The notes under the pieces: generated by a model | Database searches by the model: none | Told to the model about the DNA's origin: nothing | Seen by the model: only the letters and a program-made list of their open reading frames with translations | Position numbers and translations under genes: made by a program | Assembly: GCA_020845635.1 (NCBI GenBank) | Contig: JADLFI010000030.1 | Location: forward strand, 54,678 to 118,677 | Direction: 5' to 3' | DNA length: 64,000 bases | Source: Bacteroidia bacterium | GTDB taxonomy: Bacteria > Bacteroidota > Bacteroidia > UBA4408 | Shown: in pieces, positions 13,691-51,543 of the stretch | Layout: the number at the start of each line of letters is the position of its first letter | Position numbering within the stretch: position 1 is the first letter of the stretch

Positions 13691-15850
13691 TTAATGACTA
13701 ATCATAACTCTTGCTGTATTTACCCTATTACTCTCTACAACTTTTATTAAATATGTGCCGTTATCTAAGTTGTGTAAATCAAGTGTAAAGTGCGTTTGTT
13801 TATGATTGTTAATATTTTGCTGATATACCCGTTTGCCTGTAATATCAAATACTTCAATATAAATATTTTCTTCATTTTTATTACAGCTAATACTTAACAA
13901 ACCTTCTGAAGGATTAGGCATAATGCTTAGAAAATCGGTATTATCTATTTGTTGGGTGCCTAATAAAGAATTTGGCTGCGGTGCTCCCAATACAATAATT
14001 CCTATATTCCCCGGCAAACTGCTTCTATATACATTGCCTAAGGAGTCAATAGTTATTGTGTCGCAAAAAGTATCAGAGCAATTCAGTAATGAGTCAACAA
14101 TGGTTAAACATATCTCGTACACTCCGGGGTTATTAATTGCTATTATAGGATATGGGTCATTACTCACAATTCCGTTGCCAAAGCTCCAGGTGTAAGATAA
14201 ATTATTCCCTTGTGATGTATTTACCATACTTATTAAACCACTGTTTGAGCCGGCAGGATTGCCGGATAAAATAACAAATCCGGCAGTACAACTTCCCTGA
14301 TAAGGGTTATTTGCCCCCCACCACGATAAATCAATATACAGTAAGTTGCAGGTAGTATAAGTACAACCATTTCCGGTAACAGTTAAACAAACATTGTAAT
14401 ATCCACTGCTTGAATAGGAGTGTGTAGGGTTTGATAGGGTTGATACAGGAGAGCCATCACCAAAGTCCCATGAATAGCTAACAAGGCTTCCTAAGGCGTA
14501 TGGAGTAAAAAACACTTCACCACTATTCCCGAATTGATAATTACTGTAAGTGCCAAATGTTGCAAAGCATGAATTATTTGGTGGATTGTTAGGAGTAGTA
14601 ATAGTAATTACATAACTTGCCACACAACCTGTTGAATCGGTAACTTCTACAAAACCCCAGTTAATTCCATATATAGATGGGAATGTTATAGTTGGTGAGG
14701 CTAATGATGAGCTTGTTCCGTCAGAAAAATACCAGTAATAAGTAAAAGGAGGTACTCCGGTAGGATAAGCTTCAAAAGTGTAGGTGCTAGGATTGGCGCT
14801 ATCAGGTAAGAAGGCAACGGCATAAACTGAACAGTTGTTGCTTGTGCTTCCCGAATTGTAATTATAACAATCGCTAGCTGAACATAATCCATTATAGTCA
14901 ATAGTTACGCAATATAAACCCGTAGCATTAGGAATAATAGTATCTGTATTTATATTTAAAGGTATTCCATCAAGAGTCCATGAAATATTAACCATACCAG
15001 TGTTCGTTGAATCAATATAGGCCACTAAATAATTACCCGATGGGTAAATATATGTATAACAATTTTGAGACCCCTGTATTGTATAACAAGCAGAATCTGA
15101 ACAACCCAAACCATCAGTAATAATTACGCAGTAAGTGCCGGGAGTATTGGTAATAATACTTGAGGTAGTATCTCCGGTAGTCCAACTATATGTAAATGGT
15201 GCCACTCCCGAACTATAGGCATTTAGTCCAAATCCCGAAGCAGTAATATATGCATCACAACTGCCGGGACTGTAACAATCAGTAGCAGTACAACCGGTAG
15301 CATCTTTAATAATTACACAATAATTTCCTGAAGAAGCATTGGGCATATTAAACTGATTGTTTGAACTCCATGTTGTGCCTCCATCCCATGAATATTGAAA
15401 TGGAGCTGTTCCTGTGCCTGATGCTTCTAACAATGTAGTGCCAAGTATAGGATTAAGTGTTGCGGTACATATCAACGGATTAATACCACAACTTTGTGCG
15501 CTAACATAAATGGTAGTATCATTAAAAATAACTTGTGAGAAATAATAGGATTGGTTATTAGAACAAGTATTTAAATGCACCTCTCCGGTGGCAAAAGATC
15601 CTAGGGGATTTAAGACAAAGCTAAATGGTGCAAAGCAATGTGTGGTAGGTAGCTGAGCATTATAAATGGTATCAACCATATATGCCGTAACTCCTGATAA
15701 AGAATCAGAATAAGTTAAAGAAACAATAAATGGGACATTGGGATTAGGTTGCGGCCCGCTAATATTTACACAAACCTGTACGCTAATCGTTTGCGCATGC
15801 ACTGCCATAAACAATAAAAGCCCGGCAATAATGGAGTAAAACTTTTTCAT
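13691..15850 (-). CDS. T9SS-secreted cell-surface protein with SprB/Ig-like repeats and PKD domain
   Basis: Signal peptide. Repeated SGxYCVIIxDxxGC motifs. PKD signature WDFGDGSP...NPTHSYSSSGYYNVCLTV. C-terminal T9SS type-A sorting domain (MPNPSEGLLSI...YLIKV). Confidence 0.8.
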   Translation of the reverse strand: MKKFYSIIAGLLLFMAVHAQTISVQVCVNISGPQPNPNVPFIVSLTYSDSLSGVTAYMVDTIYNAQLPTTHCFAPFSFVLNPLGSFATGEVHLNTCSNNQSYYFSQVIFNDTTIYVSAQSCGINPLICTATLNPILGTTLLEASGTGTAPFQYSWDGGTTWSSNNQFNMPNASSGNYCVIIKDATGCTATDCYSPGSCDAYITASGFGLNAYSSGVAPFTYSWTTGDTTSSIITNTPGTYCVIITDGLGCSDSACYTIQGSQNCYTYIYPSGNYLVAYIDSTNTGMVNISWTLDGIPLNINTDTIIPNATGLYCVTIDYNGLCSASDCYNYNSGSTSNNCSVYAVAFLPDSANPSTYTFEAYPTGVPPFTYYWYFSDGTSSSLASPTITFPSIYGINWGFVEVTDSTGCVASYVITITTPNNPPNNSCFATFGTYSNYQFGNSGEVFFTPYALGSLVSYSWDFGDGSPVSTLSNPTHSYSSSGYYNVCLTVTGNGCTYTTCNLLYIDLSWWGANNPYQGSCTAGFVILSGNPAGSNSGLISMVNTSQGNNLSYTWSFGNGIVSNDPYPIIAINNPGVYEICLTIVDSLLNCSDTFCDTITIDSLGNVYRSSLPGNIGIIVLGAPQPNSLLGTQQIDNTDFLSIMPNPSEGLLSISCNKNEENIYIEVFDITGKRVYQQNINNHKQTHFTLDLHNLDNGTYLIKVVESNRVNTARVMISH

Positions 15851-16093
15851 GGTAAATTAAATTAATGGTTTTATATTAAGTACGTTTGAACCTTGGGTTT
15901 GTTAGTTGATAGTTGAAAAATGTAATTTTTTAATGCTCACATAGATACCTTTCGAGAAACTGAATCTTACAAATTTTGTTTATTATTTGGTTACACCTAC
16001 AATAAAACCTAATAACATTCTCCCCGAAAAGTACAAAATAATTATTTTCAGATAAAAAATTCTAAAGAATCAGGTTATAAATACCTAGTAATT

Positions 16094-18439
16094 CTATTGC
16101 TTAATTAGTTTTTCTATACGGTAGAAACTGTCGTTACTAACTTTCACAAAATAAATACCACTTCGCCACTCTTCGGTGGTAAAAGATATATTATTTTTAT
16201 TTGGAGCAATATAAAACTCCTCTACTAATCTTCCTGAGTAATCGTAAACAGAAGCAGTTAGCGCTTTCCCCGAAACATTTTGTATAGTCAAATTAACAAC
16301 ATCATTCGTTGGGTTAGGCACTAAGTGAAAATACAGTAAATCATGTTGGTCAACAGTGGCTGTTGGTGTAGCAGGAAAACAACTGCCTAATATACTTGCA
16401 GTTGTTCTTTCTGCATTTGAATTTACCACATCTACAATCTCACTGATGCATATCCAACCGGCAGTAACTCCCGAGAAATAAACTCTAACCAAAGGCTGTG
16501 GGTTAGATGAACGCGTTAATACTGAATCTTGTAATGATATACCAAAAATACTATTAGTGGTGGCATTAAATCTCAAATCCACCGGAAAACTACTATTAGC
16601 AAGGCTCACCACATTTTGTATGGTTACCCCTGATACGCTGAATTGAAATGCTGAAATGTCCGAACTAGGATTATGAATAACAACATCAAGAAACCCTCCA
16701 GCTAAATTTACATTAGCAATTTCTAACCCTGTAAGCTCATTAGGGTTAGTTATATTACGAGGAAAATTACAGGTGTAGTTAGGGCTACCTCCAGGATATA
16801 AAATATATGTGTTTTTACTACACCATTTTACTAATGCTGCGTCATAAATCGAAATAAACCCATTTCCGCTAACATCAACACAAGAAGCACTGCTACTAAT
16901 ACTATTTTCAATATCATCTAAATAAATGCTTATATCATCATTATTTAAAACTCCATCATTTTGTCTGTCTCCACCATGTGCTCCACCTCCACAAACTCCA
17001 TTACAATCAACTATTGCATCGCCACCGGGAATACCGTTACAATCAACAAAAGGAGCACATGAAGGCAACATAGTAAATGAAGGACCATTAATAGAATCCT
17101 GCTCAATATGCAAGCAAATCTGTACAGCATTATTAACATAGTTAATTTCATGATGCCCAAAAGCATCAGGCGCATGTGCGGCATTGATAATTACTGCTAA
17201 ACGATAATCTCCCGTAGGAACATCTGTTATATCTATCCATTGGCATTGTGTGCCTAATCCATAAACATCATAACAGTTTGTTGATATCCCCATGTTTCCG
17301 CAATTGTATTGCCCAAACCCACATAAATCCATAACACAAAAACCATTTTTATGTCCGGCAGGTATTACATTGTTGTTTGAGTCGTACAAACGATAATCGC
17401 CATATCCTTCGTAATGTGCATGTCCGTGGCAGTTAGAAGTGTTAAACATTCCCGGCTGGGTTGTTGGGTTTCCAATGTAGTAATCTAGTGTTCCGTAGTT
17501 AAATATTTTTGAAGTAAAACTTAAAACCTTACGAGTACCATAGTTAAGTAAACAACCCTCTTGTACATCACAATTCTGAGCAACAATTGTTTGTAAGGTT
17601 AAGGAATTAATGAGCGACATAGAATCTAATTCTAAGTCAGGTCCCTGACAGCCGGGGTCGGGAAAGTATATACAACTACCATCATCAACACTGGCTAAGG
17701 GATTAAAATTACAAGATGCCGGATCTGTACATCCGGTAATAGGTCCCGAGTAACTAAATTCAAAATGAATTGAGTCTGTGCAACTATCCATAATATCACC
17801 TATCCGAATATAATATGTATGACCGGCAATGAGTGTAGTTATTATTCTAGATTGTTGTCCGCAAAAGTCATCATTAAATGCGTAAGTTCCTGTAGCATCT
17901 TCGGTGTAATTTCCTATACATGATGAGTACATCCAAATAGCAGTATTACAAGTATTAGTAGAACATGTAGAAATTTCGTACAAACCGGTAAGGCTACAGT
18001 TATACACATACCAAGAATCTTCAAAGCCTGTTGTATGTTGTCCTATACTTATCGGCAAAGGAGATGTGCAATAACTTCCCTGAGGGCATCCTACCGCAAA
18101 AGAAGTACCTGAACCAAAGCTGTTTCCTGAACTTATTAAAGTACCATCAAGATAAACCCAATAACCGCCCGGAGCATAAATACCATCGCCATAGGTGTCA
18201 TATATCGAGAAAATCAAACAGCTATTGGCAGCTACACATATTGTATCGGTATTATAGGTTCCGGAGGCTATAATAGTCCCGGAACTGTTTTTAATATTCC
18301 ATGAGGTCTCATTAGGCCAATTATCAGGAATAATTTTTACAATAATTTCTGATTGACCCGGCCCGCAAGCAGCCTGAGTTGTATTTTGTAAAAAAATACA
18401 TAAAATGATTAGAATAAAGTTTGATAAATATTTTTTCAT
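16094..18439 (-). CDS. T9SS-secreted lysyl oxidase-like (LOX copper amine oxidase domain) protein
   Basis: Signal peptide. N-terminal PPC-like domain. Central region is strikingly LOX-like: CHGHAHYEG (H-x-H-x-H copper site, compare WHSCHQHYH), AGHKNGFC (compare GHKASFC, the cofactor Lys), [20 protein letters not shown] (compare [20 protein letters not shown]), [12 protein letters not shown] (compare ESDYTNNVVRCD). Then a Ca-binding-like Asp/Cys-rich linker and a T9SS CTD ([13 protein letters not shown]...IYFVKV). Confidence 0.75.
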   Translation of the reverse strand: [781 protein letters not shown]

Positions 18440-18522
18440 GGTGATTTTTGGTTAGGTAATAACAAAATTAAAAAAGTTTTTTATTATTACAAGAATGAAT
18501 AGTGGTTAAACATTCATTTAAA

Positions 18523-18555
18523 TAAAAAAGGGGAGCAAATGCTCCCCTTTTTTAT
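18523..18555 (-). terminator. Rho-independent terminator downstream of giant adhesin gene
   Basis: Perfect hairpin AAAAAGGGGAGC-AAAT-GCTCCCCTTTTT flanked by A/T tracts, symmetric (bidirectional). Confidence 0.75.
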
Positions 18556-18571
18556 TATTAATTACCAAGTA

Positions 18572-21500
18572 TTAGCGCAACACAACTTTTCTGTTGATTG
18601 TACCATTATCAGTAATTATTTGAACGAAGTAAACTCCCTTAGCAGCAGCACTTAAATCAATTTGATTTTTATACTGACCGGAGTATTGATTTACAACATC
18701 GGTATAAACCAACTGACCATTAACGTTAACTACACGTACAGCTAAACTGTGTGTTTTAGACCCGTTAAACGACAAGTTAATTACATCAGAGGCAGGATTA
18801 GGATACAACTCAAGAGATGTTCCGTCTGATAAAGACTCTATTCCTGTTCCAATAATTACTACTTGTTGGTTAATAGTTATTGAACCGCAATTGTTGCCAA
18901 CAGTTAACACTACAGTATAAGTACCATCACCCATATAAGTGTGAGTAGGGTTAGTAGTATTTGACCAAGGAGTACCATCACCAAAATCCCACTGGCTGGT
19001 TACAAAATCTGTAGAAGTATTGGTAAATGTAGTTAAACCACCAGGTATTGCATTGTAAGTAAATGATGCAGAAGGCAATGGATTAACAACAACAGGTACA
19101 GTAGTTGAAACAGCGGTACAACCTCCAGGAGAAGTATAAGTTACACTGTAGATACCTGTTTCAGTTACAAAAATAGAGTTTGTGGTTTCTCCATTACTCC
19201 AAGTATTACCACTTATCTCGCTACTTAATAACTGTACACTTTCACCTTCACAAATAATGGTAGGGCCACCCACAATGATGTATGGGGTAGCACCGGCACC
19301 AACCGTAGTAACAATTGGTTGTGAGGTAGCAGAACATCCGGTAACTGGGTCTGTTACGGTTACAGTAATAGTTTCGGCTGTTGATACAGTAATGGTTTGG
19401 TTAGTAGAGCCTGTACTCCAAGTGTTATTTGTTTGACTGCTTGAAGTTAAATCAACTGTTGAACCATTACATAAAGCAAGAGGGCCATTAGCTGAAATGG
19501 TTGGAACAGGAACAGCATTAACCGTAACATTAATTGCATTAGAAACTGCTGAACAACCATTAGTATCTGTTACAGTGGTATAGAAACTTCCACTGGCATT
19601 TACCGTAATTGATTGATTGGTTGTTCCATCAGACCATACATTACCATTAGCCTCTGAAGAGGTTAAAGTAACAGTACCGCCTAAACAGAAAGTTGTAGGA
19701 CCATTAGCTGTAATATTTACAACAGGAGCAGGGTTAACAGTTACAATTTCTACAGCAGATATAGCTTCGCAACCATTAGTGTCTAATGTAGAAACAAAGT
19801 AAGAGCCGGAAGTTGTAACGGTAATGCTTTGACCCATGTTACCGGCTCCCCAGTTGTAACTGGCAGCAGGTGTTGAAGTTAAAATAACACTATCGCCTGC
19901 ACAGAAAGTAGTTGAACCACTAGCCGTGATTACCGGTGTAGGAGGAGCCGGGAAGGAGTTAACAACTAACACAGGGGTTTCGGCAGTACAACCTGCAGCA
20001 CTTGTAACAGTACAGCTATAGCTGCCTGCCGATACAGTAATTACCGGGTCGGTAGTAATACCATCGCTCCATAAGTATGTATCGCCACCCGAAGCAGTTA
20101 AATCAATAGTACCACTACCACAAATAGGAAGTGAACCGTTTGCTATAATCTCTGCATGAGGGGTTTCATTAATAGTAACAACTTCTACGGCAGAGGTCGA
20201 GCTACATCCTGTTCCCGGATCGGTAATAGTAACGGTGTAGTTATAAACACCAGGAGTAGAAACAATTACATCTGGGGTTGATTCAAAGGTTGGACTCCAA
20301 GAAATGTCACCATTCCAAACAACTGATAATGTAACAGTATCTCCTTCACATACAGTAGATCCGCTTGACGTAATTACAGGATTTTGAGGAGCTGAAGACA
20401 CAACAGAAATAATATTACTTACAGATTCACATCCATTGGCATCTGTAATAGTAGCAGAGTAATCACCGGTAGCATTAACGGTAATGGTTTGAGTGGTCTC
20501 ACCGGTTGACCAAGTAATTCCACTAATGTCACTCGTTAAATCAACAGTGGCACCATTACATAAAGCAAGTGGTCCATTAGCTGTAATAACAGGTGCTACA
20601 GGTGCAGTAGTAGTTACAGTTAAGGTAAAGTTACCTACCGAGGTACCAAAACCTTGAACTAAAATGTAATAAGTAGTTCCGGCAACACCTGTCCAGCTAT
20701 ATTGTGATTGAAGACCACAGAAATCATCATTTCCACCAACACAAACTAAAGCAGAGCAGTCACCAGAGAATACATTTATTTTGGTATCATATCCTGTACC
20801 GGTACACAAATCTGCTGTAATTTGTCCCCCGTTGCCCACTACTGTGTACCATACCCCCGGAGCTGAAATAGTTGTACCACATGTAGCAACACCTGTTTCG
20901 GTAGTTGCAAACAAGGTAGAACCATTTATAGGTGTATTACATCCTACTGCAATAGCTCCCGAGCAATTGTCGTTAACCGGAGCACCAGGAATATCATATA
21001 TACATAAAGTAAAGTCAGTAGTAGCAGGAATACCTAATTCTGCATCATAAATACGTACATAATAAGTATTTCCAACTGTTAATCCACTCATTGTACCTGT
21101 TTCAACGGTACCTGCACCAAAAGTAGCATCGAAGCAGGCTAATGAATTGCCTGAACAAGCATCAAACAATTCAATAACAGGGTCAAAAGAAGCTGAACCT
21201 GTAACTTCAATAATACCTGTGGTATTGGTTGCAACAAAAGAGTACCAAACATCATCATTGGCTGTTCCTGAACAACCTGTAATGGATTGAGTAGCGTTCT
21301 CAACTGATCCGGTAACAGGATCGCATGTAGCATTCCAAATAGCAGGAATTGCTCCTGTACATTCGTCATTAGCAGCTACTGTAAGTGGAGTACAATCAAT
21401 TGACATTACATAATTATTATGTGTGCCGCATGGATAACCATAAAAGTCGCTCACAGCTACAAAAGCCCACCATGTGCCCGGAGGAAGGTTGTCAAGGGTA

Positions 21501-24500
21501 AATGTGTTACCGCATAATCCGGTAGTAGTACTTAAGTTAAAGAATACAGGGTTAGCACAACCTAATGAAGCATCAGCAAAGCCTATTAAAGCAGGGAAAT
21601 CAGCATCAATAGTTAAAGTTACAGTACTTGGTTGAGTTAAGGTAAATTCATACCAATCGGTATCTCTTGTTCCGCTATCGGCCCAAGCTGTACCACAAAT
21701 AACATCACCACATTCAATTGGAGTATAGAAAGGAACAGGCATATTACAACCACCATTTACATCGGCACCACATGCTTCTCCTTCTTGGATTGCACCCGGA
21801 GGGCATACAGTGTTACTGCATGGTGTTGTAAAGATATAAGATGGACTAAATCCAAAAGGAGTAGTTCCACAATCGGTTTGTACCTGAAACTCATATTCTG
21901 TATTGGCTGTTAAGCCGGAAATAGCTAAGGAAGTAGTAGGTGCATTAACGATTGAAGGAGTAACCCATGTAGGTGCAGTTCCAGGATCGGAAACTTCTTT
22001 GTATCTTACTAAATAAACAATAGCATCTGTAATGGAATTCCAATTTAATTGGGCATCAGTTGGGCTAAGGTTAGTTACATTTAAACCGCCCGGATATGCA
22101 CAATAAGGTTCAGGCAAAATATTTAAAGTATAATCTTCTACTTCACCAAATGTTGAAGTACCACAAGGCTCAGGAGTATCGGCATAATTAATTCTGATAC
22201 GCATTCTAGTTTGTCCTAAAGTAGCAGTTACCGGTACATCAATATTAGCGGTGTAAGGACCAACCCCTGGTGTTCCGGTTACAGAAATAGCTTCAAAAGG
22301 ATCATCAAAATCGCCATCCTGATTCCAATCAACCCAAATTCCACATTCATCACTTGCCCAGATTGTTACGCCATTAGTTACTGTAATCGGATAACTTAAT
22401 CCTTGGTTTACGTCAGTTGATAAAGCAGTATAATCAGAATAACCTCCGGAACAAGCACTGGCATTGTTAATAGTGCCTATCTCAACATTACTAATATATT
22501 CATCACAAATACTATTAGAAGCAGGGCAATATACCACATTATTATCAGTTTCAAAGCTTATTTCAGAACAACCCGTAGCAGAGCCATTAGCATTTACCGG
22601 AACAACATACCAATAATATGTTGTACCAAAGTTTAACAATCCCGGACTATAGCTATTTGCTACTTGATTTGTGCTTACTAACGGAGGGTTAGGAGTATCT
22701 CCAAAATAAACATCGTATCCGGTTGGAGGCGTGCCCGGTCCTGGCGACCAAGTTAAAGTAGGGTTAGGATTAACAGCAGTACTTAAATCGGCTGGCGATA
22801 AGTTAATAGCACAGCTCGGTGCATTCGCAGCCGAAATACAACTTACAGTAGCTTCCCACCCCGGTCTGGTAACACTTCCATCACTTCTGAATACAAAGGT
22901 TAAAGCACCGCTAGGATCTGAAGAGGTAACTGTTCCGGGGCTGGTAGTTCCATACCATGAGCCGGCAGGGCAGTTGACCACGTTATTTCCGGCAGGCAAT
23001 GGAGAAGCAATCATTGGGTAGGTGGCATCCGGGCCATTATAAATGACTAAGCCATCCCAGCCGCTTTCTGTTTCAAATGAATTAAAAATTACCTGAATTA
23101 AACTGTTCGGAGAATCAGGATAAATTGTTTTGGTGTAGTTTTCATTGCTTTGATAGTTTCCTGAGCCTGAACCTGAATCATAGAACATGGCATTGCATGT
23201 GTTTTCATCATTATTATTATTCATGATAATAATTGGTCCCGGATCGGTAACACAAATATCAAAAGTTAAAGTAGCAGGATCACCCATGCCAAAATCATAT
23301 ACGCGTACATAATAAGTATTACCCGGAGTAAGTCCACTAACGGTAGCCATTTCGGTGGCTCCTATTCCGGTAGAATTTGAGCAAACCAAGCTGGTTCCGG
23401 CACAAGCATCAAATACCTGAACAACAGGATCGAATGAGGCTGACCCGGTTACTTGAACTAATGCTGTAGTGCTAATGGCTACAAAAGAATACCAAACATC
23501 ATCATTGGCAGTACCAACACAACCGGGAAGCGATTGAGTAGCATTTTCTACACTTCCCGAAACAGGGTTACAAACAACATCTTGAATTATTGAAATGGCA
23601 TTTGAGCACTCATCGTTAGCTGCTACCGCTAAAGGAACACAAGAAAGAGTTCCTACATATCTTGTTTTTCCTGAGGTACAACCATAGGCATCGTCAAAGT
23701 TTGAATGTGACACAAACAGCCACCAAGTACCGGCAGCTAAATTTTGAACGGTTGAGGTTCCTGAGCAATCTCCGGCATTTGACGTAACATTAAAGAAAAC
23801 CGGAGACCCACAACCTGCTGATGCATCAACAAAACCCACATTGGCAGGAAAATCGGCATCAACACTCCATGTAACAGTGCTTGGCTGGCTTAGGGTAAAC
23901 TCAAACCAATCGGTATCTCTTGTAGTTGACGATGACCAAGCAGTACCACAAATAGTTTGACCACAGCTAATAGGTTCATAAGCCGGAACAATCATATTAC
24001 AGCCGCCATTAGCATCAGTACCACAAGCTTCATTTTCCAGAATTGCTCCCGGAGGGCAATCAGTTAATGCGCATGAGGTGTTAAACGTATAACTGAAAGA
24101 GAAACCACTAAAATCACCACCTCCACAATCAACATTTATTTGAACTTCGTAAAGGGTGTTTGGTGTTAGCCCCGATATACTATAATTAGATACTGCAGTA
24201 GGTGTTGGAGTATCCCACGTTGGAACGGTAACAGGTTCAGAAACGGCTTTCCAACGAATTTCATACCCTACTCCTGTAGGTGAGTCATCCCAATCAACAT
24301 CAGCAGTGGAACTGGTAACATTATTAAACAAAATATTAGAAGCAAAAGGACACGAAGGAGCCGGTAAAACTTCAATAGTATAATCTTCAACTTCCCCATA
24401 GGTAGTATTTCCGCATGGGTCTGGTGTGTTTGCAAAAACAATGCGAATACGCATACGAGTAGTTCCTAATAAAGAAGTTCCCGGAGGGGTAATGGTAGTA

Positions 24501-25690
24501 GTATAAGGTCCAACGCCCGGAGATCCAGTAACGGTCATTGATTCATCAGGGTCATCAAAATCTCCATCCTGATTCCAGTCAATCCAAATACCACATTGAT
24601 CAGAAGACCATGGTGCGCCATTAGTTACTGTCATAGGATATGGGGTTAATTGGCTTAATGGAATGGTTATAGCAGTATAATCTGTATAACCACTAACCCC
24701 ACATGCACTCGGGTTTGTAACCCCTGCAATAGATACATCACTAATATATTCATCACAAATAGTTGCCCCTGCAGTACAATAGCATTGTGTTGGAGGATTG
24801 GAAGTTACCATTAAAAAATCTGATGGTACACTAGAAAGACCACATGTAACCAAGCATCGGTAATAAGTGGTTACCGTTTGGTTAGTCATATATGATGGGT
24901 TAGTAGCCCCAATAATTGGCGACCAGCTAACACCGTCAGGTGAACTTTGCCATTGATAGGTTTGTCCAGAACCTGTAGATTGCCCTTGTAATGAAAGAAT
25001 TAAATTCTCGCTCGGGCAAATAGGGTTAATATTAGCTACAGTAACACCGGCTGTGGGTGGATCAACACAAGGAAAACCTCCGATAATCTCAAAATACATA
25101 TTAGGTCGGCTGGTTGATGCAGTAACTGCTCCAGGAGTTGAACAAACATTCGCATTATCTCCTCTGTAATAAACAGCAGAGTTAAAGGAAGTGACTGTTC
25201 TGTTAACTATAGCATTGTTAGTGTAACTGCTGTTGTTAAAACAAGTTTCAATAATTAAATTACTTACTCCATCCCAGTTAAAGGGTGTAAGAAATGTGTG
25301 CATATTGACACCGGCTGTTTCGGTATAACTGGCAATAGTATATACCGAAGTAAGTCCTGCTTCAAAGGCACTTAAGTCGTTAAGCGCAGTTGTGCCAATT
25401 TTAATCTCAAAATTACTGAGAGGAGTTCCTTGGGCTGTAACAACATCAAATCCCAATGCAGTAATATCACCATTAGAAGCTCCGGCAGCGGTAAGCTCGG
25501 CAGCAGTAACTAAAAACTGATGTTTAGCTCCCCAATAAAAGTTACCATAAGGAGCAGGGTAATTGGTGGTAGTGTTTTGGTTTGTACCATTACCAACCTG
25601 AAAGGGTTGTGCCGAAACTACGTTACATAGAAAGGCAAAAACAACCAATAGCACTCCACACTTTGTAAAAAAGTTGTACCTGTTTGTCAT
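18572..25690 (-). CDS. Giant (2372 aa) T9SS-secreted multidomain adhesin-like protein (GEVED, FN3, PPC, CUB, Ig-like x7, PKD, CTD)
   Basis: Signal peptide. Two copies of [GEVED(GEVEDYT)-FN3-PPC-PPC]. A CUB-like domain. Seven ~73-aa Ig-like repeats. PKD (WDFGDGTPWSNTTNPTHTY). T9SS CTD (LYPNPASDVINL...VYFVQI). Confidence 0.85.
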   Translation of the reverse strand: MTNRYNFFTKCGVLLVVFAFLCNVVSAQPFQVGNGTNQNTTTNYPAPYGNFYWGAKHQFLVTAAELTAAGASNGDITALGFDVVTAQGTPLSNFEIKIGTTALNDLSAFEAGLTSVYTIASYTETAGVNMHTFLTPFNWDGVSNLIIETCFNNSSYTNNAIVNRTVTSFNSAVYYRGDNANVCSTPGAVTASTSRPNMYFEIIGGFPCVDPPTAGVTVANINPICPSENLILSLQGQSTGSGQTYQWQSSPDGVSWSPIIGATNPSYMTNQTVTTYYRCLVTCGLSSVPSDFLMVTSNPPTQCYCTAGATICDEYISDVSIAGVTNPSACGVSGYTDYTAITIPLSQLTPYPMTVTNGAPWSSDQCGIWIDWNQDGDFDDPDESMTVTGSPGVGPYTTTITPPGTSLLGTTRMRIRIVFANTPDPCGNTTYGEVEDYTIEVLPAPSCPFASNILFNNVTSSTADVDWDDSPTGVGYEIRWKAVSEPVTVPTWDTPTPTAVSNYSISGLTPNTLYEVQINVDCGGGDFSGFSFSYTFNTSCALTDCPPGAILENEACGTDANGGCNMIVPAYEPISCGQTICGTAWSSSTTRDTDWFEFTLSQPSTVTWSVDADFPANVGFVDASAGCGSPVFFNVTSNAGDCSGTSTVQNLAAGTWWLFVSHSNFDDAYGCTSGKTRYVGTLSCVPLAVAANDECSNAISIIQDVVCNPVSGSVENATQSLPGCVGTANDDVWYSFVAISTTALVQVTGSASFDPVVQVFDACAGTSLVCSNSTGIGATEMATVSGLTPGNTYYVRVYDFGMGDPATLTFDICVTDPGPIIIMNNNNDENTCNAMFYDSGSGSGNYQSNENYTKTIYPDSPNSLIQVIFNSFETESGWDGLVIYNGPDATYPMIASPLPAGNNVVNCPAGSWYGTTSPGTVTSSDPSGALTFVFRSDGSVTRPGWEATVSCISAANAPSCAINLSPADLSTAVNPNPTLTWSPGPGTPPTGYDVYFGDTPNPPLVSTNQVANSYSPGLLNFGTTYYWYVVPVNANGSATGCSEISFETDNNVVYCPASNSICDEYISNVEIGTINNASACSGGYSDYTALSTDVNQGLSYPITVTNGVTIWASDECGIWVDWNQDGDFDDPFEAISVTGTPGVGPYTANIDVPVTATLGQTRMRIRINYADTPEPCGTSTFGEVEDYTLNILPEPYCAYPGGLNVTNLSPTDAQLNWNSITDAIVYLVRYKEVSDPGTAPTWVTPSIVNAPTTSLAISGLTANTEYEFQVQTDCGTTPFGFSPSYIFTTPCSNTVCPPGAIQEGEACGADVNGGCNMPVPFYTPIECGDVICGTAWADSGTRDTDWYEFTLTQPSTVTLTIDADFPALIGFADASLGCANPVFFNLSTTTGLCGNTFTLDNLPPGTWWAFVAVSDFYGYPCGTHNNYVMSIDCTPLTVAANDECTGAIPAIWNATCDPVTGSVENATQSITGCSGTANDDVWYSFVATNTTGIIEVTGSASFDPVIELFDACSGNSLACFDATFGAGTVETGTMSGLTVGNTYYVRIYDAELGIPATTDFTLCIYDIPGAPVNDNCSGAIAVGCNTPINGSTLFATTETGVATCGTTISAPGVWYTVVGNGGQITADLCTGTGYDTKINVFSGDCSALVCVGGNDDFCGLQSQYSWTGVAGTTYYILVQGFGTSVGNFTLTVTTTAPVAPVITANGPLALCNGATVDLTSDISGITWSTGETTQTITVNATGDYSATITDANGCESVSNIISVVSSAPQNPVITSSGSTVCEGDTVTLSVVWNGDISWSPTFESTPDVIVSTPGVYNYTVTITDPGTGCSSTSAVEVVTINETPHAEIIANGSLPICGSGTIDLTASGGDTYLWSDGITTDPVITVSAGSYSCTVTSAAGCTAETPVLVVNSFPAPPTPVITASGSTTFCAGDSVILTSTPAASYNWGAGNMGQSITVTTSGSYFVSTLDTNGCEAISAVEIVTVNPAPVVNITANGPTTFCLGGTVTLTSSEANGNVWSDGTTNQSITVNASGSFYTTVTDTNGCSAVSNAINVTVNAVPVPTISANGPLALCNGSTVDLTSSSQTNNTWSTGSTNQTITVSTAETITVTVTDPVTGCSATSQPIVTTVGAGATPYIIVGGPTIICEGESVQLLSSEISGNTWSNGETTNSIFVTETGIYSVTYTSPGGCTAVSTTVPVVVNPLPSASFTYNAIPGGLTTFTNTSTDFVTSQWDFGDGTPWSNTTNPTHTYMGDGTYTVVLTVGNNCGSITINQQVVIIGTGIESLSDGTSLELYPNPASDVINLSFNGSKTHSLAVRVVNVNGQLVYTDVVNQYSGQYKNQIDLSAAAKGVYFVQIITDNGTINRKVVLR
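19075..20605 (-). repeat. Seven tandem ~220-nt repeats encoding Ig-like (SprB-type) domains
   Basis: Protein repeats follow the pattern PVITASGSTxFCxGDSVxLTS...NxWSDGTTNQSITVxxSGSYxxTVTDxNGCxAVSxxxxVTVN, seven times in a row. Confidence 0.7.
20995..24793 (-). repeat. Intragenic diverged duplication (two ~1.55-kb units about 2.25 kb apart) within the giant adhesin gene
   Basis: Protein blocks of ~518 aa are repeated. DNA is also visibly similar, for example CAAAAGAGTACCAAACATCATCATTGGC at ~21240 versus CAAAAGAATACCAAACATCATCATTGGC at ~23490. Units lie roughly at 20995..22540 and 23236..24793, with a CUB-containing spacer between them. Confidence 0.7.
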
Positions 25691-25696
25691 AATTAA

Positions 25697-26223
25697 TTAT
25701 TTATTTGAATTGTTATTAATATTCATTTGCTTTTCCAAGGTAGCCACCTTATTGTTTATGTCTTCATCAGAGGCTCCACGGGCTTTTAAATCAGCTACTA
25801 ATTTGGCTTTTTTCTTTTCCCATTCAGCTTTTACATTTTCATTGTTAGTGGCCGTTTGGTTGTTGTTAACTTTAGATATGGTTCCAACAGAATTAACAGC
25901 AGAAGTAGAAGGAGCATTTGACTTAACAGTCATTTTTTCTGCTTGTTCTTTTTCAATATTCTGCTTTTTTGTTTCGTTTGCCGACTTGCTCATTCTTTCC
26001 TGAATAGCTTGTTGGCGTTTTAAATCAGCCTCACTTTTTTGGGCTTCTTTAGGAGCCTGATCACTCATTGTAGCAGTCTTTCTGGTACTTGTAGGTACCT
26101 GCTTCTTCTCAGGCTCGGAATTAACTTTATTAGCTTGTGCAAATAAATGTGTTCCCGACAGCCCAAAAATCATTACCATAAGTATCATGGTAATTTTTCT
26201 TAAATTGATAGGTTTGTTTAACA
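25697..26223 (-). CDS. Lys-rich secreted coiled-coil protein, immediately upstream of the giant adhesin gene
   Basis: Track ORF 25697..26329. Preferred start ATG 26223 (MLNKPINLRKITMILMVMIFGLSGTHLFAQA, signal peptide). Mature part is about 16% Lys (EKKQ, TKKQ, EKKKAK) and polar and helical. Its stop is 6 nt before the giant gene start. Confidence 0.55.
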
Positions 26224-26546
26224 TAATTAAATAAAATAGATTGTGGTTTATATAAATTTTGATAGCGCAATTTATGCACAAAATTACTTTTAACAAATAT
26301 TTTTTTTGTTTTCGAAACATCTTTAACATTTAAACGTAATGCTTCTTTTGTATTATTGCAATATAAACAGCTTATACCGTGATTGTTACAAAAAGAAATG
26401 GGGTTATTTTTTCAAACTAAAAAATATTGATTTATTATCCCTAACTTTCAACTTTGCTCATAGTAGAATAATTTTTCTAATTTCGCCACCTTGAAAACAG
26501 AGTATTTAATTTTTCTTTTAATAAAAACACTTATTTAATTTATAAT

Positions 26547-29500
26547 ATGACTTACAAAAAAATTAATACAATTACAGGTTGGGTTGTTTTTGTTGTTGCG
26601 GCTTTTGTTTATCTTTCAACAATTGAGCCAACGGCCAGTTTTTGGGATTGTGGAGAGTACATTGCCACGGCATATAAGTTAGAAGTGGGGCATCCGCCAG
26701 GAGCTCCTTTGTTTAATTTAATTGGTCGATTTTTTACATTATTTTCTGACCAACATGGGGCAGCACGAATGGTTAACTCCATGAGTGCCTTATGTAGTGC
26801 TTTTACTATTTTGTTCTTGTTTTGGTCAATAACGGCTTTTGCTAAAAAAATTGCCTTAAAAGCCGGTGAAATTAATAACGACAAAATTTGGGTGATTATG
26901 GCCAGCGGTATCGTTGGAAGCTTAGCCTATACTTTTTCGGATTCTTTTTGGTTCTCGGCAGTTGAAGGAGAAGTATATGCTATGTCATCGTTTTTTACCG
27001 CTATTGTATTTTGGGCCATATTAAAATGGGACGAGTTGGCAGATGAACCGCATAGCCTACGTTGGATTATCTTAATTGCCTATTTGGTAGGCTTGTCAAT
27101 AGGTGTTCACTTGTTAAATTTATTAGCCATTCCGGCAATTGTATTTGTTTATTATTTTAGACGATATGAGTTTACTCGTAAAGGATTTATTATTACCGCT
27201 TTTATTGCTGTATTTACCTTAGGAATTGTGCAGGCAGGTATTATCCCGGGCATTGTAAAATGGGCTGCTAATTTTGAGTTGTTCTTTGTTAATTTCCTTG
27301 GGTTACCGTTTAATTCAGGAACCATTTTTTATTTCTTAATATTAATTGGTTTATCTGTTTGGGGGCTTTGGTACACACATAAACATAATAAAACAGTCTT
27401 AAACACGGGTATTTTAGCTATTACTATGTTACTGATAGGATATTCTTCCTTCTTTACCTTGGTTATACGCTCACAAGCCAATACCCCTATGGACGAAAAT
27501 AATCCTGAAAATGCCATTAACATGCTGGCCTATCTAACTCGTGAACAATATGGCGACTGGCCAATTGTTTACGGTCAGTACTATAATGCTCCTCTCGACC
27601 AGTCACAACCATACAAAGATGGTAATCCTGTATATACAAAAGATAAAAGAGCAGGTAAGTATGTTATAACGCAGGATAAGAAAAACAGTATCCCGAATTA
27701 CGATAGTCGTTTTAATACCCTTTTCCCACGTATGTATAGCGACCAGAGAAATCATGTAAGCGGATATAAAGATTGGGGTGATGTTAAAGGAACTCCCGTG
27801 AGTTATACTGATTATAACGGAGAATCAAAGACCGTTATGAAACCTACTTTTGGTGAAAACTTAACCTATTTCTTCCGTTATCAAATTGGACACATGTATG
27901 CACGCTATTTTATGTGGAATTTTGCCGGAAGACAGAATGATATACAGGGACATGGTGGGGTACTAAAAGGTAATTGGGTAAGTGGGGTTAAACCATTAGA
28001 TGCATTGCGACTAGGGCCACAAGAAAACATTACTTCCAGCCTAAGCTCTAATAAAGGATACAATCGTTTTTATTTCTTACCGTTGGTTCTAGGTTTAGTT
28101 GGAATGTTTTTTCATTTTAAGAAAGATAAATCAGATGGCTTTGTGGTGTTCTTATTATTCTTCTTAACCGGTTTGGCTATTGTTATTTACCTGAACCAAA
28201 CTCCGTACCAGCCCCGTGAACGTGATTATGCTTATGTAGGCTCTTTCTATGCTTTTGCTATTTGGATAGGTTTGGGCGTATATGCTTTGGCTGATTTGTT
28301 TTCAAAGAAAATATCATTTAAAGGAAGCACCCTGTTAGCTTTTGTTATTGGTATGCTTGCAGCTCCGGTAATTATGGCCAAAGACGGATGGGATGATCAT
28401 GATCGAAGTCACCGCTATACCGCACGCGATTTTGCAGCCAACTACCTTAACTCATGCGCACCTAACGCAATATTATTTACCAATGGCGATAATGATACCT
28501 TCCCGCTATGGTATGCTCAGGAAGTTGAGGGTATAAGAACTGATGTTAGGGTAGTAAATCTTAGCTTATCTAATACCGATTGGTATATTGAACAATTACG
28601 AAGAAAAGCCTACGACTCTGACCCGTTGCCTCTTTCTTTAACCGAAGACCAATACCGTCAGGGAACAAGAGATTATTTGCCGGTATATTATAACCCATCA
28701 ATTATAAAAGATAGCACCAAATACTATAATATTAAACAAATAATGGAGTTTGTTGGTAGCGAAGACCCAAAAGCAAAAATTCAAACCCAAGGTGGCATGG
28801 ATCTAAGCTATCTGCCTACCGAAAAAATAGCTATTCCGGTTGATAAAAATGCAGTAATTAGTAACGGTACCGTTAGCAAAGATAAGGAAGATCAGATATT
28901 AACCGAAATTCCGTGGAAAATTACCAAGAGATATATTATGAAAAACGATTTAATGATTATGGATATAATTGCAAATAATAACTGGAAAAGACCTATTTAT
29001 TTTGCAGTTACTGTAGGCGATGACGCATACTTAAATCTTGAGCCATACTTCCAGTTAGAAGGACTGGCTTATCGCTTGGTGCCTATGAACATGCGTTCAT
29101 CAGACGGACAAACCGGAAAGGTAAACACTGCTCTAATGTTTGAGAATATGATGAATAAGTTTAAATGGGGTGGAATGGGCGAGAAAGATATCTATATGGA
29201 TGAAAATAACCTACGCATGACCATGAACCTTAGAAATAATTTTTCTCGTTTGGCAGATGCTTTAATTTTAGAGGGGAAGAAAGAAGAAGCCAAAAAAGTA
29301 ATGGAAAGGTGTATGACCGAAATGCCTCGCAGAAATGTACCATATAATTATTTTATGCTTCCTTTAGCCGAAACATATTTTAAATTAGAGATGAATAAAG
29401 AAGGCAATGAATTATTGAAAAGCATTGCTGATATTTATGAAGAAGATTTGAATTACTACCTCAGATTTAGTGGTAAACTGTCGGAAAGCATTGACACCGA

Positions 29501-29612
29501 GAAACAACAAGCCATGGCTGTTTTACAAAGAACGGCCCAAGTAGCCCGAATATATAAGCAAGAAGAATTGGCCAAACAATTAGATGAACGCTTGAAGAAA
29601 TTCGGAATATAG
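26547..29612 (+). CDS. DUF2723-family polytopic membrane protein (GT-C fold, PMT/ArnT-like glycosyltransferase) with C-terminal TPR-like region
   Basis: 1021-aa protein. N-terminal region has more than 10 TM helices with FWDCGEY...GHPPGAPLF, typical of DUF2723. The large C-terminal soluble domain is helical. Confidence 0.75.
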   Translation: MTYKKINTITGWVVFVVAAFVYLSTIEPTASFWDCGEYIATAYKLEVGHPPGAPLFNLIGRFFTLFSDQHGAARMVNSMSALCSAFTILFLFWSITAFAKKIALKAGEINNDKIWVIMASGIVGSLAYTFSDSFWFSAVEGEVYAMSSFFTAIVFWAILKWDELADEPHSLRWIILIAYLVGLSIGVHLLNLLAIPAIVFVYYFRRYEFTRKGFIITAFIAVFTLGIVQAGIIPGIVKWAANFELFFVNFLGLPFNSGTIFYFLILIGLSVWGLWYTHKHNKTVLNTGILAITMLLIGYSSFFTLVIRSQANTPMDENNPENAINMLAYLTREQYGDWPIVYGQYYNAPLDQSQPYKDGNPVYTKDKRAGKYVITQDKKNSIPNYDSRFNTLFPRMYSDQRNHVSGYKDWGDVKGTPVSYTDYNGESKTVMKPTFGENLTYFFRYQIGHMYARYFMWNFAGRQNDIQGHGGVLKGNWVSGVKPLDALRLGPQENITSSLSSNKGYNRFYFLPLVLGLVGMFFHFKKDKSDGFVVFLLFFLTGLAIVIYLNQTPYQPRERDYAYVGSFYAFAIWIGLGVYALADLFSKKISFKGSTLLAFVIGMLAAPVIMAKDGWDDHDRSHRYTARDFAANYLNSCAPNAILFTNGDNDTFPLWYAQEVEGIRTDVRVVNLSLSNTDWYIEQLRRKAYDSDPLPLSLTEDQYRQGTRDYLPVYYNPSIIKDSTKYYNIKQIMEFVGSEDPKAKIQTQGGMDLSYLPTEKIAIPVDKNAVISNGTVSKDKEDQILTEIPWKITKRYIMKNDLMIMDIIANNNWKRPIYFAVTVGDDAYLNLEPYFQLEGLAYRLVPMNMRSSDGQTGKVNTALMFENMMNKFKWGGMGEKDIYMDENNLRMTMNLRNNFSRLADALILEGKKEEAKKVMERCMTEMPRRNVPYNYFMLPLAETYFKLEMNKEGNELLKSIADIYEEDLNYYLRFSGKLSESIDTEKQQAMAVLQRTAQVARIYKQEELAKQLDERLKKFGI

Positions 29613-33898: not shown

Positions 33899-34840
33899 TT
33901 GAGTTTTCTTAATCATAAATATATGTATAGTAATAGATTCTCTCAATTCGCAGTAATTCTTTGTACCGTTATATCCCTTAATAGTAAGGCTGAGATTTCG
34001 TACTCCCAAAACGACACCCTGAACAAACAGTATTTTGACAGTTTATCCTACAGCCTATATCAATCACCCGGAGGTGGGTATGTGTCGGGCAACAATGCAT
34101 ATCATGATAAAGCTAAGGTTCAAGAGTTTAAAGCCGGGAACTTATGCAATATATTTGCTGTAATGATGAACTTTGGATACAAAGCCTACCACTCTTTAAA
34201 CGATTCTTCATACCTATACATAAATTATTATGCTATGGATAATCTTGGCAAAACTACAGCAAGTAATAGCGCACTTTGCCCGGGAAACATTATTTTCAAA
34301 GATTCCTTAAAGGTAAGTGATATAGATACAACTAATGGCAACATGTTTGTTTATAATAGTCCTATATTTACCGATAGTAATTTTGCCATTGGGATTGATT
34401 TTGAACATTTGTTTCAAGCTGACACGGTTGCTTTGTACACCAACAAAGATGGCGATGCCGGAAACCGAGAACAATCGTGGGAACAAGATGCTTCGGGTCA
34501 ATGGTACAGCCTAAAATATAACTGGCCGTTAAATGCCGATTATGCCATTTTTCCTATAGTTAATACTTCGCTTGGACTAATACCTGTTTCTACCGGAAAT
34601 AGCAATATTATTGTATTCCCTAACCCTTCAACAAATGAAATAATTAATGTTTATGGTCAATTCTCTAATGAGTATGTAGTAAATTTATTCAATGCCTCAT
34701 TTCAGAAAGTTCCATACAAAATAGTTTATAAAACCGATAAAAATTTGCAGATACAACCCGAAATTACCAGCAGAGGAATATACTTTTTACAAGTTAAGAG
34801 CAAAACAGGTATATCGTTCAACAAAATAATTATACAATAA
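33899..34840 (+). CDS. T9SS-secreted hypothetical protein
   Basis: Signal peptide (probable start MYSNRFSQFAVILC at 33923). C-terminal T9SS sorting domain (IVFPNPSTNEIINV...IYFLQVKS). Confidence 0.7.
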   Translation: MSFLNHKYMYSNRFSQFAVILCTVISLNSKAEISYSQNDTLNKQYFDSLSYSLYQSPGGGYVSGNNAYHDKAKVQEFKAGNLCNIFAVMMNFGYKAYHSLNDSSYLYINYYAMDNLGKTTASNSALCPGNIIFKDSLKVSDIDTTNGNMFVYNSPIFTDSNFAIGIDFEHLFQADTVALYTNKDGDAGNREQSWEQDASGQWYSLKYNWPLNADYAIFPIVNTSLGLIPVSTGNSNIIVFPNPSTNEIINVYGQFSNEYVVNLFNASFQKVPYKIVYKTDKNLQIQPEITSRGIYFLQVKSKTGISFNKIIIQ

Positions 34841-49778: not shown

Positions 49779-49875
49779 TTAATAATTGTTTTGTTGAAAA
49801 TTGCCACAAGTTTTTTCTATTTTAGGTAGCCTTGTTATTTTCCTTTTATTATTTTTGCAAAAAAATCAAAAAACT

Positions 49876-51543
49876 ATGTTTAAAAATTTACTTGCTTTCT
49901 TATTTTTCTTTTCTTTTTCTGTATTTGTTCAAGCACAAAATCGCTACATTGCAGAAAACGGGAACGACACCATCGGTAACGATTGTACTTTACCCGGTAA
50001 TCCTTGTGCTTCTATTTCGTATGCCGTAAGTCAGGCACAAGATTTTGATACCATCATGGTTTCGAGCGGGAATTATGCCTTTGCCGGCACACAATTAATC
50101 AACAAACCTGTTGTAGTTTTTGGTTACGATTCAATAAAACCTATAATCTCTGTTGTGGGACAAGATGTAATTCAGGTTTCTTCTGATAGTGTAACAATTA
50201 ACAATTTGTATATTAAAATGGGCTTAACCGGAAATAGCGGCTTAAGGGGTGTGGTGGCCAATGGCAATTATAACGGATTAACTATTGAGAATTGTGACTT
50301 TATTAGTATAAAGCCTATTGGCTTTGGGATGGTTTTTAGTGCCTACGCTATATTAGCTTATGGAGGCAATGGTCAGTCAATTAATATTATTAATAACACC
50401 ATTCAGCCTCTTGATTCAATCTACGATTCATTTGGAAGAGGTATAGGCCTAGGTCTAAATGCAGCTAATTCGTACGGCCCCGGGGCTACTGTTGATGGAA
50501 ATACGGTTAGAGCATACTATCCTATTCAAGCTATTAATAATACAAACAATGTTTTGGCCAACAATAATTTATTTACAGGTTATCTTCATGTTGTATATCC
50601 TATAGGAACTATAACTGTGAATTTTACCAATAATACTTTTGACGCTTATAATGATGCTATTGCCGAAAATTTAATAGCGCTTCTTGAGCTTCGTAGTTTT
50701 AAAACCGCTTCCGCTATTGTTGAAAACAACAACTTTATAAACTACAAAAACATAGGTTTGTTTAGTTCTGCTTCTCGTAATATACTGGTTAAAGGAAACA
50801 CTTTTACCCCTTCACCAATTGCTAATTCGTTTGCTAGCATAATGGCAAATACAAAATTAATGACTAACGGGGTTCAAACATCAAATTACAGTAATCAAAT
50901 AGAGATTAAAGGTAATACTTTTAATGCGGGTGTGGACAGTACCGGAAAAGCTATTGTATTTGGAGACCACTATGGAGCCTATACTCCAGCATTTGATACA
51001 ATTATGATAGGTGGTTTTGATGCAACAGATAAGAATATTTTTGATACTCAACTTGAATATTTTATTGCATTAGATACTTTAAGCGGTCCAAGCAACAGCC
51101 AGAGTTTTTGGGGTGGTTACTCTGTTACTAATATGGTTCCTTTTGCACAAAGCGTTTATGCTTTAGCCAATCAAAACGAATATACTTATACTGATACTAC
51201 CGAGTTAGAAAATAAAATGCTTGACTCTTTAGATTTTTCAGGAGTAGGCAAAGTTATTTTATTTGACTCATTAATTGTAGTAAAGACTCCAATAGCTGAC
51301 TTATTAAGTGTTTCTGTTTATCCTAATCCTACACAAAGCAATATAACTATAGCCAACAATCAATTTAAAGGCTTATATACTATGGATATTTATGATATTA
51401 ACGGGAAACTGGTAAAAAGAAAAAATCAAACAATTGATGGTAGTAATATAAATATTTCGGTAAGTGAATTAAGTTCAGGTAAATATTTGATTATTATGCA
51501 CAACAACAAACAAGTTTACAAAGGCAGTTTTATTAAAAACTAA
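49876..51543 (+). CDS. T9SS-secreted right-handed beta-helix (pectate-lyase-fold) protein
   Basis: Signal peptide from ATG 49876 (track ORF starts 49801). Parallel beta-helix-like repeats (NGN/GNT-rich). C-terminal T9SS sorting domain (VYPNPTQSNITI...YLIIMHN). Confidence 0.7.
   Translation: MFKNLLAFLFFFSFSVFVQAQNRYIAENGNDTIGNDCTLPGNPCASISYAVSQAQDFDTIMVSSGNYAFAGTQLINKPVVVFGYDSIKPIISVVGQDVIQVSSDSVTINNLYIKMGLTGNSGLRGVVANGNYNGLTIENCDFISIKPIGFGMVFSAYAILAYGGNGQSINIINNTIQPLDSIYDSFGRGIGLGLNAANSYGPGATVDGNTVRAYYPIQAINNTNNVLANNNLFTGYLHVVYPIGTITVNFTNNTFDAYNDAIAENLIALLELRSFKTASAIVENNNFINYKNIGLFSSASRNILVKGNTFTPSPIANSFASIMANTKLMTNGVQTSNYSNQIEIKGNTFNAGVDSTGKAIVFGDHYGAYTPAFDTIMIGGFDATDKNIFDTQLEYFIALDTLSGPSNSQSFWGGYSVTNMVPFAQSVYALANQNEYTYTDTTELENKMLDSLDFSGVGKVILFDSLIVVKTPIADLLSVSVYPNPTQSNITIANNQFKGLYTMDIYDINGKLVKRKNQTIDGSNINISVSELSSGKYLIIMHNNKQVYKGSFIKN

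Follow-up and report, generated by a model that had tools for sequence, protein, structure and literature searches.

The window analyzed here, a 64,000-nucleotide stretch of contig JADLFI010000030.1 from the Bacteroidia bacterium assembly GCA_020845635.1, encodes on its minus strand (16094–18439) an intact 781-residue open reading frame (ORF) with a lysyl oxidase (LOX) domain. We consider it likely, with a probability of about 0.8, that the product travels as cargo of the type IX secretion system (T9SS) and, as a member of the LOX family, is a catalytically competent amine oxidase dependent on copper and lysine tyrosylquinone (LTQ). What the analysis shows directly are the domain identities, the conservation of catalytic residues, the fold matches, the distribution of the family and the lack of any gene partner conserved across loci; residue numbers are those of the full-length protein and were verified directly on the sequence.

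The lysyl oxidase domain

By every sequence and fold criterion examined, the protein belongs to the lysyl oxidase family. A hidden Markov model search places a match to the Pfam family Lysyl_oxidase (PF01186) at residues 296 to 449 (E = 1.2e-26; 94.1 bits versus a cutoff of 20.4), within a catalytic domain that spans residues ~265 to 462 (17054–17647, minus strand), and PF01186 is matched by 42 of 42 family members. The sole significant sequence match in the PDB is human LOXL2 (5ZE3; E = 1e-17), with the HxHxH, Lys and Tyr positions aligned, and the predicted structure shows the LOX catalytic-domain fold. A preliminary description of this stretch, made from its letters alone, had proposed a LOX domain with conserved catalytic residues, and this proposal holds: all of the motifs that it quoted are present, i.e., CHGHAHY (residues 337–343), GHKNGFC (362–368), CYDVYG (389–394), CQWIDITDV (399–407) and NNAV (436–439). 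Conservation was analyzed in an alignment of 42 homologues sharing 41 to 71% identity with the query, in which the LOX block is the most conserved region of the protein, with a mean column identity of 0.8 to 0.9 versus 0.35 to 0.65 elsewhere.

In LOXL2, the metal site is formed by His626, His628, His630 and Tyr689, and Lys653 and Tyr689 are the LTQ precursors (PMC5899467). The predicted copper ligands of the bacterial protein, H338, H340 and H342, align with LOXL2 H626, H628 and H630, and the predicted LTQ precursors K364 and Y393 align with K653 and Y689; all are invariant in the 42 sequences. The LOXL2 calcium site, which comprises Asp549, Leu550, Glu722, Asp724, Asn727 and Asn728 (PMC5899467), has invariant counterparts at LOXL2 spacing in D268 and L269 (PDL) and in E431, N433, N436 and N437 (ExNxxNN), with one ligand an Asn in the bacterial protein and an Asp in LOXL2 (N433 versus D724). 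Furthermore, ten invariant cysteines (C290, C296, C337, C368, C373, C380, C389, C399, C442 and C461) are spaced like LOXL2 C573, C579, C625, C657, C663, C673, C685, C695, C732 and C746. By analogy to the disulfide bonds of the LOXL2 catalytic domain (C573–C625, C579–C695, C657–C673, C663–C685 and C732–C746; PMC5899467), these may pair as C290–C337, C296–C399, C368–C380, C373–C389 and C442–C461. The equivalence to C573 and C579 is drawn from the shared CX5C spacing, with the HMMER alignment shifted at its N-terminal edge; the HMMER alignment to 5ZE3 reaches C290, C296 and the calcium-site segments at most with its edges, and their equivalence therefore rests on motif and spacing.

Outside of these features, the bacterial protein departs from human LOXL2 and the animal LOX and LOXL proteins. 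The SRCR domains and the LOX propeptide found there are missing; in their place are a pair of PPC-like sandwiches, a dockerin-like and a cohesin-like module and a T9SS C-terminal sorting domain (CTD). Relative to LOXL2, eight residues are deleted behind the second Cys of ES1. Whereas LOXL2 follows the eukaryotic secretory pathway, the bacterial protein is predicted to enter the periplasm as a T9SS cargo, and neither collagen nor elastin is apparent in the bacterial host. A nearer comparison is to archaeal HTU-LOX, which is likewise a prokaryotic LOX-family protein, is the sole biochemical precedent for a prokaryotic LOX homologue and is termed "cryptic" by its authors (PMC6452851). HTU-LOX is an active amine oxidase sensitive to β-aminopropionitrile, so such homologues can be active; the full-length protein was inactive until truncated and refolded, and its substrates include Lys-containing polymers and many primary amines, among them taurine, glycine, aminoglycosides and polymyxin (PMC6452851).

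Export signals and modular architecture

A type-A CTD is found at the extreme C terminus (residues ~703–781; 16097–16333, minus strand, followed by the stop codon at 16094–16096), as had been proposed, and scores above cutoff as Por_Secre_tail (PF18962; E = 1.3e-12, residues 708–779) in Pfam and as TIGR04183 (E = 3.1e-11) in NCBIfam. At the N terminus, inspection of the sequence identifies a predicted Sec signal peptide (residues 1–23; 18371–18439, minus strand) with a 14-residue hydrophobic core between MKK and TQA/A. The structural model places a helix at residues 2 to 17 followed by a low-confidence linker, and the N-terminal family consensus, MKKxLLxL...AxC, agrees with this prediction. 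Thirty-two of the 34 cysteines of the protein are invariant in the 42-homologue alignment, as expected of a disulfide-rich exported protein. Taken with the LOX domain, the type-A CTD thus points to an exported enzyme, as the preliminary description had suggested. Compared with type-A cargo such as mirolase of Tannerella forsythia or NucA in the T9SS complex, the passenger here is a LOX-type amine oxidase and not a protease, nuclease, glycosidase or adhesin, and our literature search found no paper connecting LOX with T9SS cargo. Six of nine sampled relatives of different size also end in a T9SS CTD, and LOX therefore recurs as a T9SS passenger; these six combine LOX with fn3, PKD, GBD_T9SS_assoc or fifteen MopE copper-binding motifs, and a seventh carries LOX and a MAM domain without a CTD. 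Of the relatives labeled P0136 and P0123, one is a 2152-residue protein with LOX, 15 MopE-type copper-binding motifs, PKD and a T9SS CTD, and the other combines MAM with LOX.

The preliminary description had recognized a PPC-like region, LOX and the CTD, in that order; this part stands, and it overlooked a dockerin-like and a cohesin-like module between LOX and the CTD. The fold-search matches come without residue ranges, and the assignment of modules rests on the domain boundaries of the structural model and on a separate model of the N-terminal region. This region contains two β-sandwiches with a PPC/collagen-binding-domain-like fold on the minus strand, sandwich 1 at residues ~24 to 119 (18083–18370), with conserved ETSW and D-x-YGDG motifs, and sandwich 2 at residues ~120 to 235 (17735–18082). 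The top structural matches are the collagen-binding domains of clostridial ColG and ColH and the PPC domain of a Bacillus collagenase, at 8 to 14% identity. The PPC-like character is one of fold; residues 1 to 295 give no match to PF04151 (PPC) or to any other Pfam family, and the N-terminal family profile finds nothing significant among PDB sequences. Alignment of this profile with the GBD_T9SS_assoc domain of the neighboring protein by hhalign gave a probability of 18% (E = 0.0013).

A short linker of low pLDDT (predicted local distance difference test; residues 236–264; 17648–17734, minus strand) carries four cysteines invariant in the family (C237, C243, C256 and C264). Its invariant motif, GCTDPxxCN[FY]NPxAxxDDGSC, joins the PPC-like and LOX domains and, searched against the PDB, retrieves only a nonsignificant 24-residue stretch of MPEG1/perforin-2 (E = 0.23). 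We considered whether this motif (GCTDxxxCN[FY]NP...DDGSC) is the "cysteine-rich repeat" of published papers on horizontal gene transfer and dropped the idea, as no connection could be established.

Downstream of LOX, a Cys-rich linker (DCNG...DCNGVCGG) leads into a two-loop, two-helix module (together residues ~463–546, the module itself ~488–546; 16802–17053, minus strand) with helices at residues 500 to 511 and 531 to 542 in the model. In the family consensus, the second loop reads DLNGDGxLSVYD, a canonical form that fits the EF-hand-like pattern DxNxDGxhxxxD; the first calcium loop is degenerate. The score for Dockerin_1 (PF00404), 12.7 bits versus a cutoff of 22.9 (E = 0.16), is below threshold, and we therefore speak of a dockerin-like module and not of a dockerin. 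Subthreshold Dockerin_1 matches occur in 11 of 42 family members (best E = 0.0017), and seven of nine PDB matches of the family profile for this middle region are dockerins, none of them significant (E = 0.25–1.3). Residues ~560 to 692 (16364–16762, minus strand) adopt a cohesin-like jelly-roll β-sandwich in the structural model; Pfam returned no Cohesin (PF00963) match in the 42 members at E ≤ 1. In contrast to cohesin and dockerin modules of cellulosomal and noncellulosomal proteins, the two here are both subthreshold and adjoin one another in a single polypeptide, with the first calcium loop degenerate and, unlike in cellulosomes, no cellulosomal context. As far as we could find, this conserved six-module, ~780-residue architecture is new to the literature.

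Distribution and genomic neighborhood

On a global scale the LOX domain is uncommon, but the clade described here is not. An exhaustive phmmer search of 1.84 billion cluster representatives returned LOX-domain matches in 2170 clusters at E ≤ 1e-3, 1281 at ≤1e-10 and 232 at ≤1e-30, and a scan of GTDB species genomes found relatives at 570 or more loci. The best 80 of these loci lie nearly all in uncultured Bacteroidota metagenome-assembled genomes (MAGs), with record names that indicate lakes, rivers, glacier-fed streams and wastewater plants. The earlier statement that bacterial LOX homologues are rare is thus borne out globally, does not apply to this clade and should be read beside the listing of Bacteroidetes among LOX-bearing bacterial clades by Grau-Bove et al. 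in 2015 (PMC4448552). In that survey, nearly all prokaryotic LOX proteins consisted of nothing but a LOX domain, in some cases joined by a signal peptide or a transmembrane segment (PMC4448552), unlike the six-module, ~780-residue family with a T9SS CTD described here. The top 120 homologous clusters are nearly all ~775 to 805 residues in length and align over their full length at 41 to 71% identity, a few of them being partial or without a recorded CTD match.

The further claim that this combination is rarely if ever annotated does not survive. An identical protein is deposited in NCBI as [quoted passage not shown] and recurs in three additional sequencing runs; the window matches MAG GCA_009612915.1 (contig WBZO01000120.1). 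Among homologues, the names given include "lysyl oxidase family protein" (several, NCBI) and "Lysyl oxidase/Secretion system C-terminal sorting domain" (JGI), and the PF01186 plus PF18962 architecture is precomputed for more than 100 clusters, almost all of the top 120. The protein is thus a further bacterial LOX homologue in a family already labeled in databases.

The LOX gene lies between two minus-strand genes for T9SS cargo, encoding a 2372-residue protein upstream and a 719-residue PKD protein downstream. A hairpin resembling an intrinsic terminator (GGGGAGC-ATTT-GCTCCCC followed by TTTTTT; 18524–18547, minus strand, read from the sequence) closes the giant upstream gene and parts it from the LOX gene, and a candidate Bacteroidetes-type −7 promoter box, TAATTTTG (18463–18470, minus strand, read from the sequence), is found 24 nucleotides upstream of the ATG; this box fits TAnnTTTG, the published consensus of Bacteroidetes promoters. 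From the hairpin and T-run upstream and the TAATTTTG box before the ATG, the LOX gene is probably transcribed alone. The hairpin, with a 7-bp stem containing six G–C pairs, a 4-nucleotide loop, six Ts and a run of As beside it, is potentially bidirectional. A consensus promoter/terminator scanner found sites no more frequently in the window than in shuffled sequences and did not list the hairpin at 18524–18547.

We compared the neighbors of the LOX gene by all-versus-all BLASTP of the ORFs of 85 related loci and of the window. No neighboring gene family occurs at more than 19 of the 85 loci, and the commonest, a DUF3089 lipoprotein-like hydrolase (19 of 85), is absent at the window locus; even relatives of ~70% identity do not share the flanking cargo genes. 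An operon partner for the LOX gene was therefore rejected. In one subclade (L038, L041, L048, L049, L054, L071, L085 and others), a same-strand DUF3089 lipoprotein-like α/β-hydrolase gene directly precedes the LOX gene, and beta-lactamase-family, penicillin-amidase and DDAH-like genes follow it; this arrangement appears to reflect synteny within the subclade rather than a universal association. The GC content of the LOX gene, 0.36, equals that of the window, and no signal of horizontal transfer was seen. A tRNA cluster and ORFs at ~36 to 49 kb that look like tuf, rpoB and rpoC, as judged by position and size only, indicate that the window is chromosomal.

At least five T9SS type-A CTD proteins are encoded in the window, including proteins of 313 residues (33899–34840, plus strand) and 580 residues (49801–51543, plus strand), the passengers of which lack Pfam matches. 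The giant cargo protein (18572–25690, minus strand) carries GEVED, fn3 and GBD_T9SS_assoc domains twice each in an internally duplicated block. Ig-like repeats come next, then a PKD domain and a type-A CTD, and the protein as a whole has only 0.5% Lys as against 3.5% Cys. Divergent from this cargo cluster is a gene for a 1021-residue TMEM260-like protein O-mannosyltransferase homologue (26547–29612, plus strand; E = 5.8e-77), and a PMT_2/EpsG-like membrane glycosyltransferase-like protein is encoded at 55463 to 56860 (minus strand). Finally, a low-complexity ORF (25697–26329, minus strand; 210 residues, 14.8% Lys) ends 6 nucleotides before the start of the giant gene. An internal start, MILMVMIFGLSGTHLFAQA..., resembles a signal peptide, the NCBI version of the protein has 163 residues, and it has no Pfam match and no homologue at the other 84 LOX loci. 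As a lead to the substrate, this ORF was rejected for the latter reason.

The three adjoining T9SS cargo proteins (13691–25690) contain 0.5 to 1.8% Lys, 0.6 to 1.8% Arg and 3.5 to 4.4% Cys, as compared with 6 to 12% Lys and about 1% Cys in the cytoplasmic proteins of the window, and the CTD is the only module with a normal Lys content (about 6%) within the LOX family. Low lysine as a LOX-specific self-protection was rejected, since all three adjacent cargo proteins are equally Lys-poor.

Mechanism, substrate and biological role

The scheme that we infer covers how the cofactor forms, what the enzyme does and to which substrate, how it is exported and anchored, and what the accessory modules are for. 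The Sec signal peptide (residues 1–23) would direct the protein to the periplasm, where the 32 invariant cysteines would form disulfides, copper would be bound by H338, H340 and H342, and Y393 would be oxidized and cross-linked to K364 in a self-processing reaction that yields LTQ. The type-A CTD (residues ~703–781) would then direct passage through the T9SS translocon and be removed, after which the enzyme would stay on the cell surface or be set free. There, LOX would turn primary amines into aldehydes, ammonia and H2O2, with the two PPC-like sandwiches perhaps binding the target and the dockerin-like and cohesin-like modules together forming a calcium-dependent device for protein–protein docking. 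We give roughly even odds to lysine ε-amino groups of extracellular proteins or peptides as the substrate, and regard small or polymeric free amines as a less probable but real alternative. Macromolecular peptidyl-lysine is favored because the LOX active site is surface-exposed, open to protein substrates in LOXL2 (PMC5899467), and because four binding or docking modules are conserved.

Some observations weigh against this picture. The pLDDT of the LOX domain is only about 58 to 88, and the 5ZE3 template is a zinc-bound precursor with a Lys–Tyr distance of 16.6 Å (PMC5899467). The dockerin-like and cohesin-like calls both miss Pfam thresholds, and no core T9SS machinery gene is found within the 64-kb window; indirect evidence that the host has such machinery comes from the five or more CTD proteins encoded there and from the Bacteroidia origin of the MAG. 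The adjacent cargo proteins are Lys-poor (0.5–1.0%) and therefore poor candidates as LOX substrates, the 85 loci contain neither a collagen-like (GXY)n ORF nor a conserved Lys-rich neighbor, and the relaxed specificity of HTU-LOX means that peptidyl lysine is not to be assumed.

These points bear differently on the roles that the enzyme might have. The chief contender, tentative and on balance unlikely, is that the protein is not a cross-linker and is instead a broad-specificity extracellular amine oxidase for nitrogen scavenging, H2O2-based antagonism or both, a role akin to that of bacterial quinoprotein lysine-ε-oxidases of the LodA type. The solitary gene without a dedicated partner and the occurrence of the family in Bacteroidota MAGs that, by their record titles, are free-living in freshwater, rivers, glacier streams and wastewater are consistent with such a function, as is the acceptance of many primary amines by HTU-LOX (PMC6452851). 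However, four conserved accessory modules exceed the apparent need of a small-molecule oxidase, and the exposed LOX active site offers no small-molecule funnel. Somewhat less probable still is the cross-linking role suggested in the preliminary description, read here as the cross-linking of surface or matrix proteins of the enzyme's own cell via allysine aldehydes, a bacterial analogue of extracellular-matrix maturation. Predicted surface export of a LOX-family enzyme argues for this, as does the openness of the LOXL2 site to proteins, and the dockerin-like and cohesin-like modules could tether the enzyme to partners or to itself; against it stand the lack of a conserved partner or substrate gene and of collagen-like ORFs at the 85 loci, the lysine poverty of the neighboring cargo, the broad amine specificity of HTU-LOX (PMC6452851) and the judgment of Grau-Bove et al. 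that cross-linking of bacterial collagen-like proteins is unlikely (PMC4448552). A specific form of this idea, in which the enzyme self-assembles or docks on the surface via these two modules and cross-links a proteinaceous surface layer or biofilm matrix, we consider improbable.

Equally improbable is that foreign proteins, from prey, algae or an animal matrix such as collagen, are the targets and the PPC/collagen-binding-like domains the targeting modules. The N-terminal region does find its best matches in the ColG, ColH and Bacillus collagenase structures, but the low identity to them and the missing PF04151 match argue otherwise; sandwiches of the PPC type occur generically in secreted bacterial proteins, and the hosts appear to be free-living in aquatic or wastewater settings and not animal-associated. 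Finally, the inactivity of full-length HTU-LOX before truncation and refolding (PMC6452851) might be taken to suggest a pseudo-enzyme in which LOX is a noncatalytic binding or structural module. We regard this as very improbable, given that none of the three copper His residues, the LTQ Lys and Tyr, the calcium-site residues and the ten disulfide Cys varies among 42 homologues, the most distant at 41% identity, and that conservation is highest in the LOX block.

The present result is the correct annotation of an already labeled family, one that addresses a niche question and holds no surprise for specialists; a catalytically competent, T9SS-exported amine oxidase of this kind would nonetheless be a well-defined handle on the native role of prokaryotic lysyl oxidases. 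With at least 570 loci, a six-module layout shared by its members, catalytic residues intact and an evident route of export, the family allows recombinant, docking and secretion tests to be designed directly. If cross-linking at the surface holds true, the family would represent a prokaryotic, T9SS-delivered counterpart of animal extracellular-matrix cross-linking in a large uncultured Bacteroidota clade, and the clade could bear on the bacterial ancestry of eukaryotic LOX. A protein substrate would mean that a bacterial surface or matrix contains covalent cross-links made by an enzyme; if free amines are oxidized, the Bacteroidota of freshwater and wastewater would have a LOX-type oxidase as a further part of their extracellular nitrogen and H2O2 chemistry.

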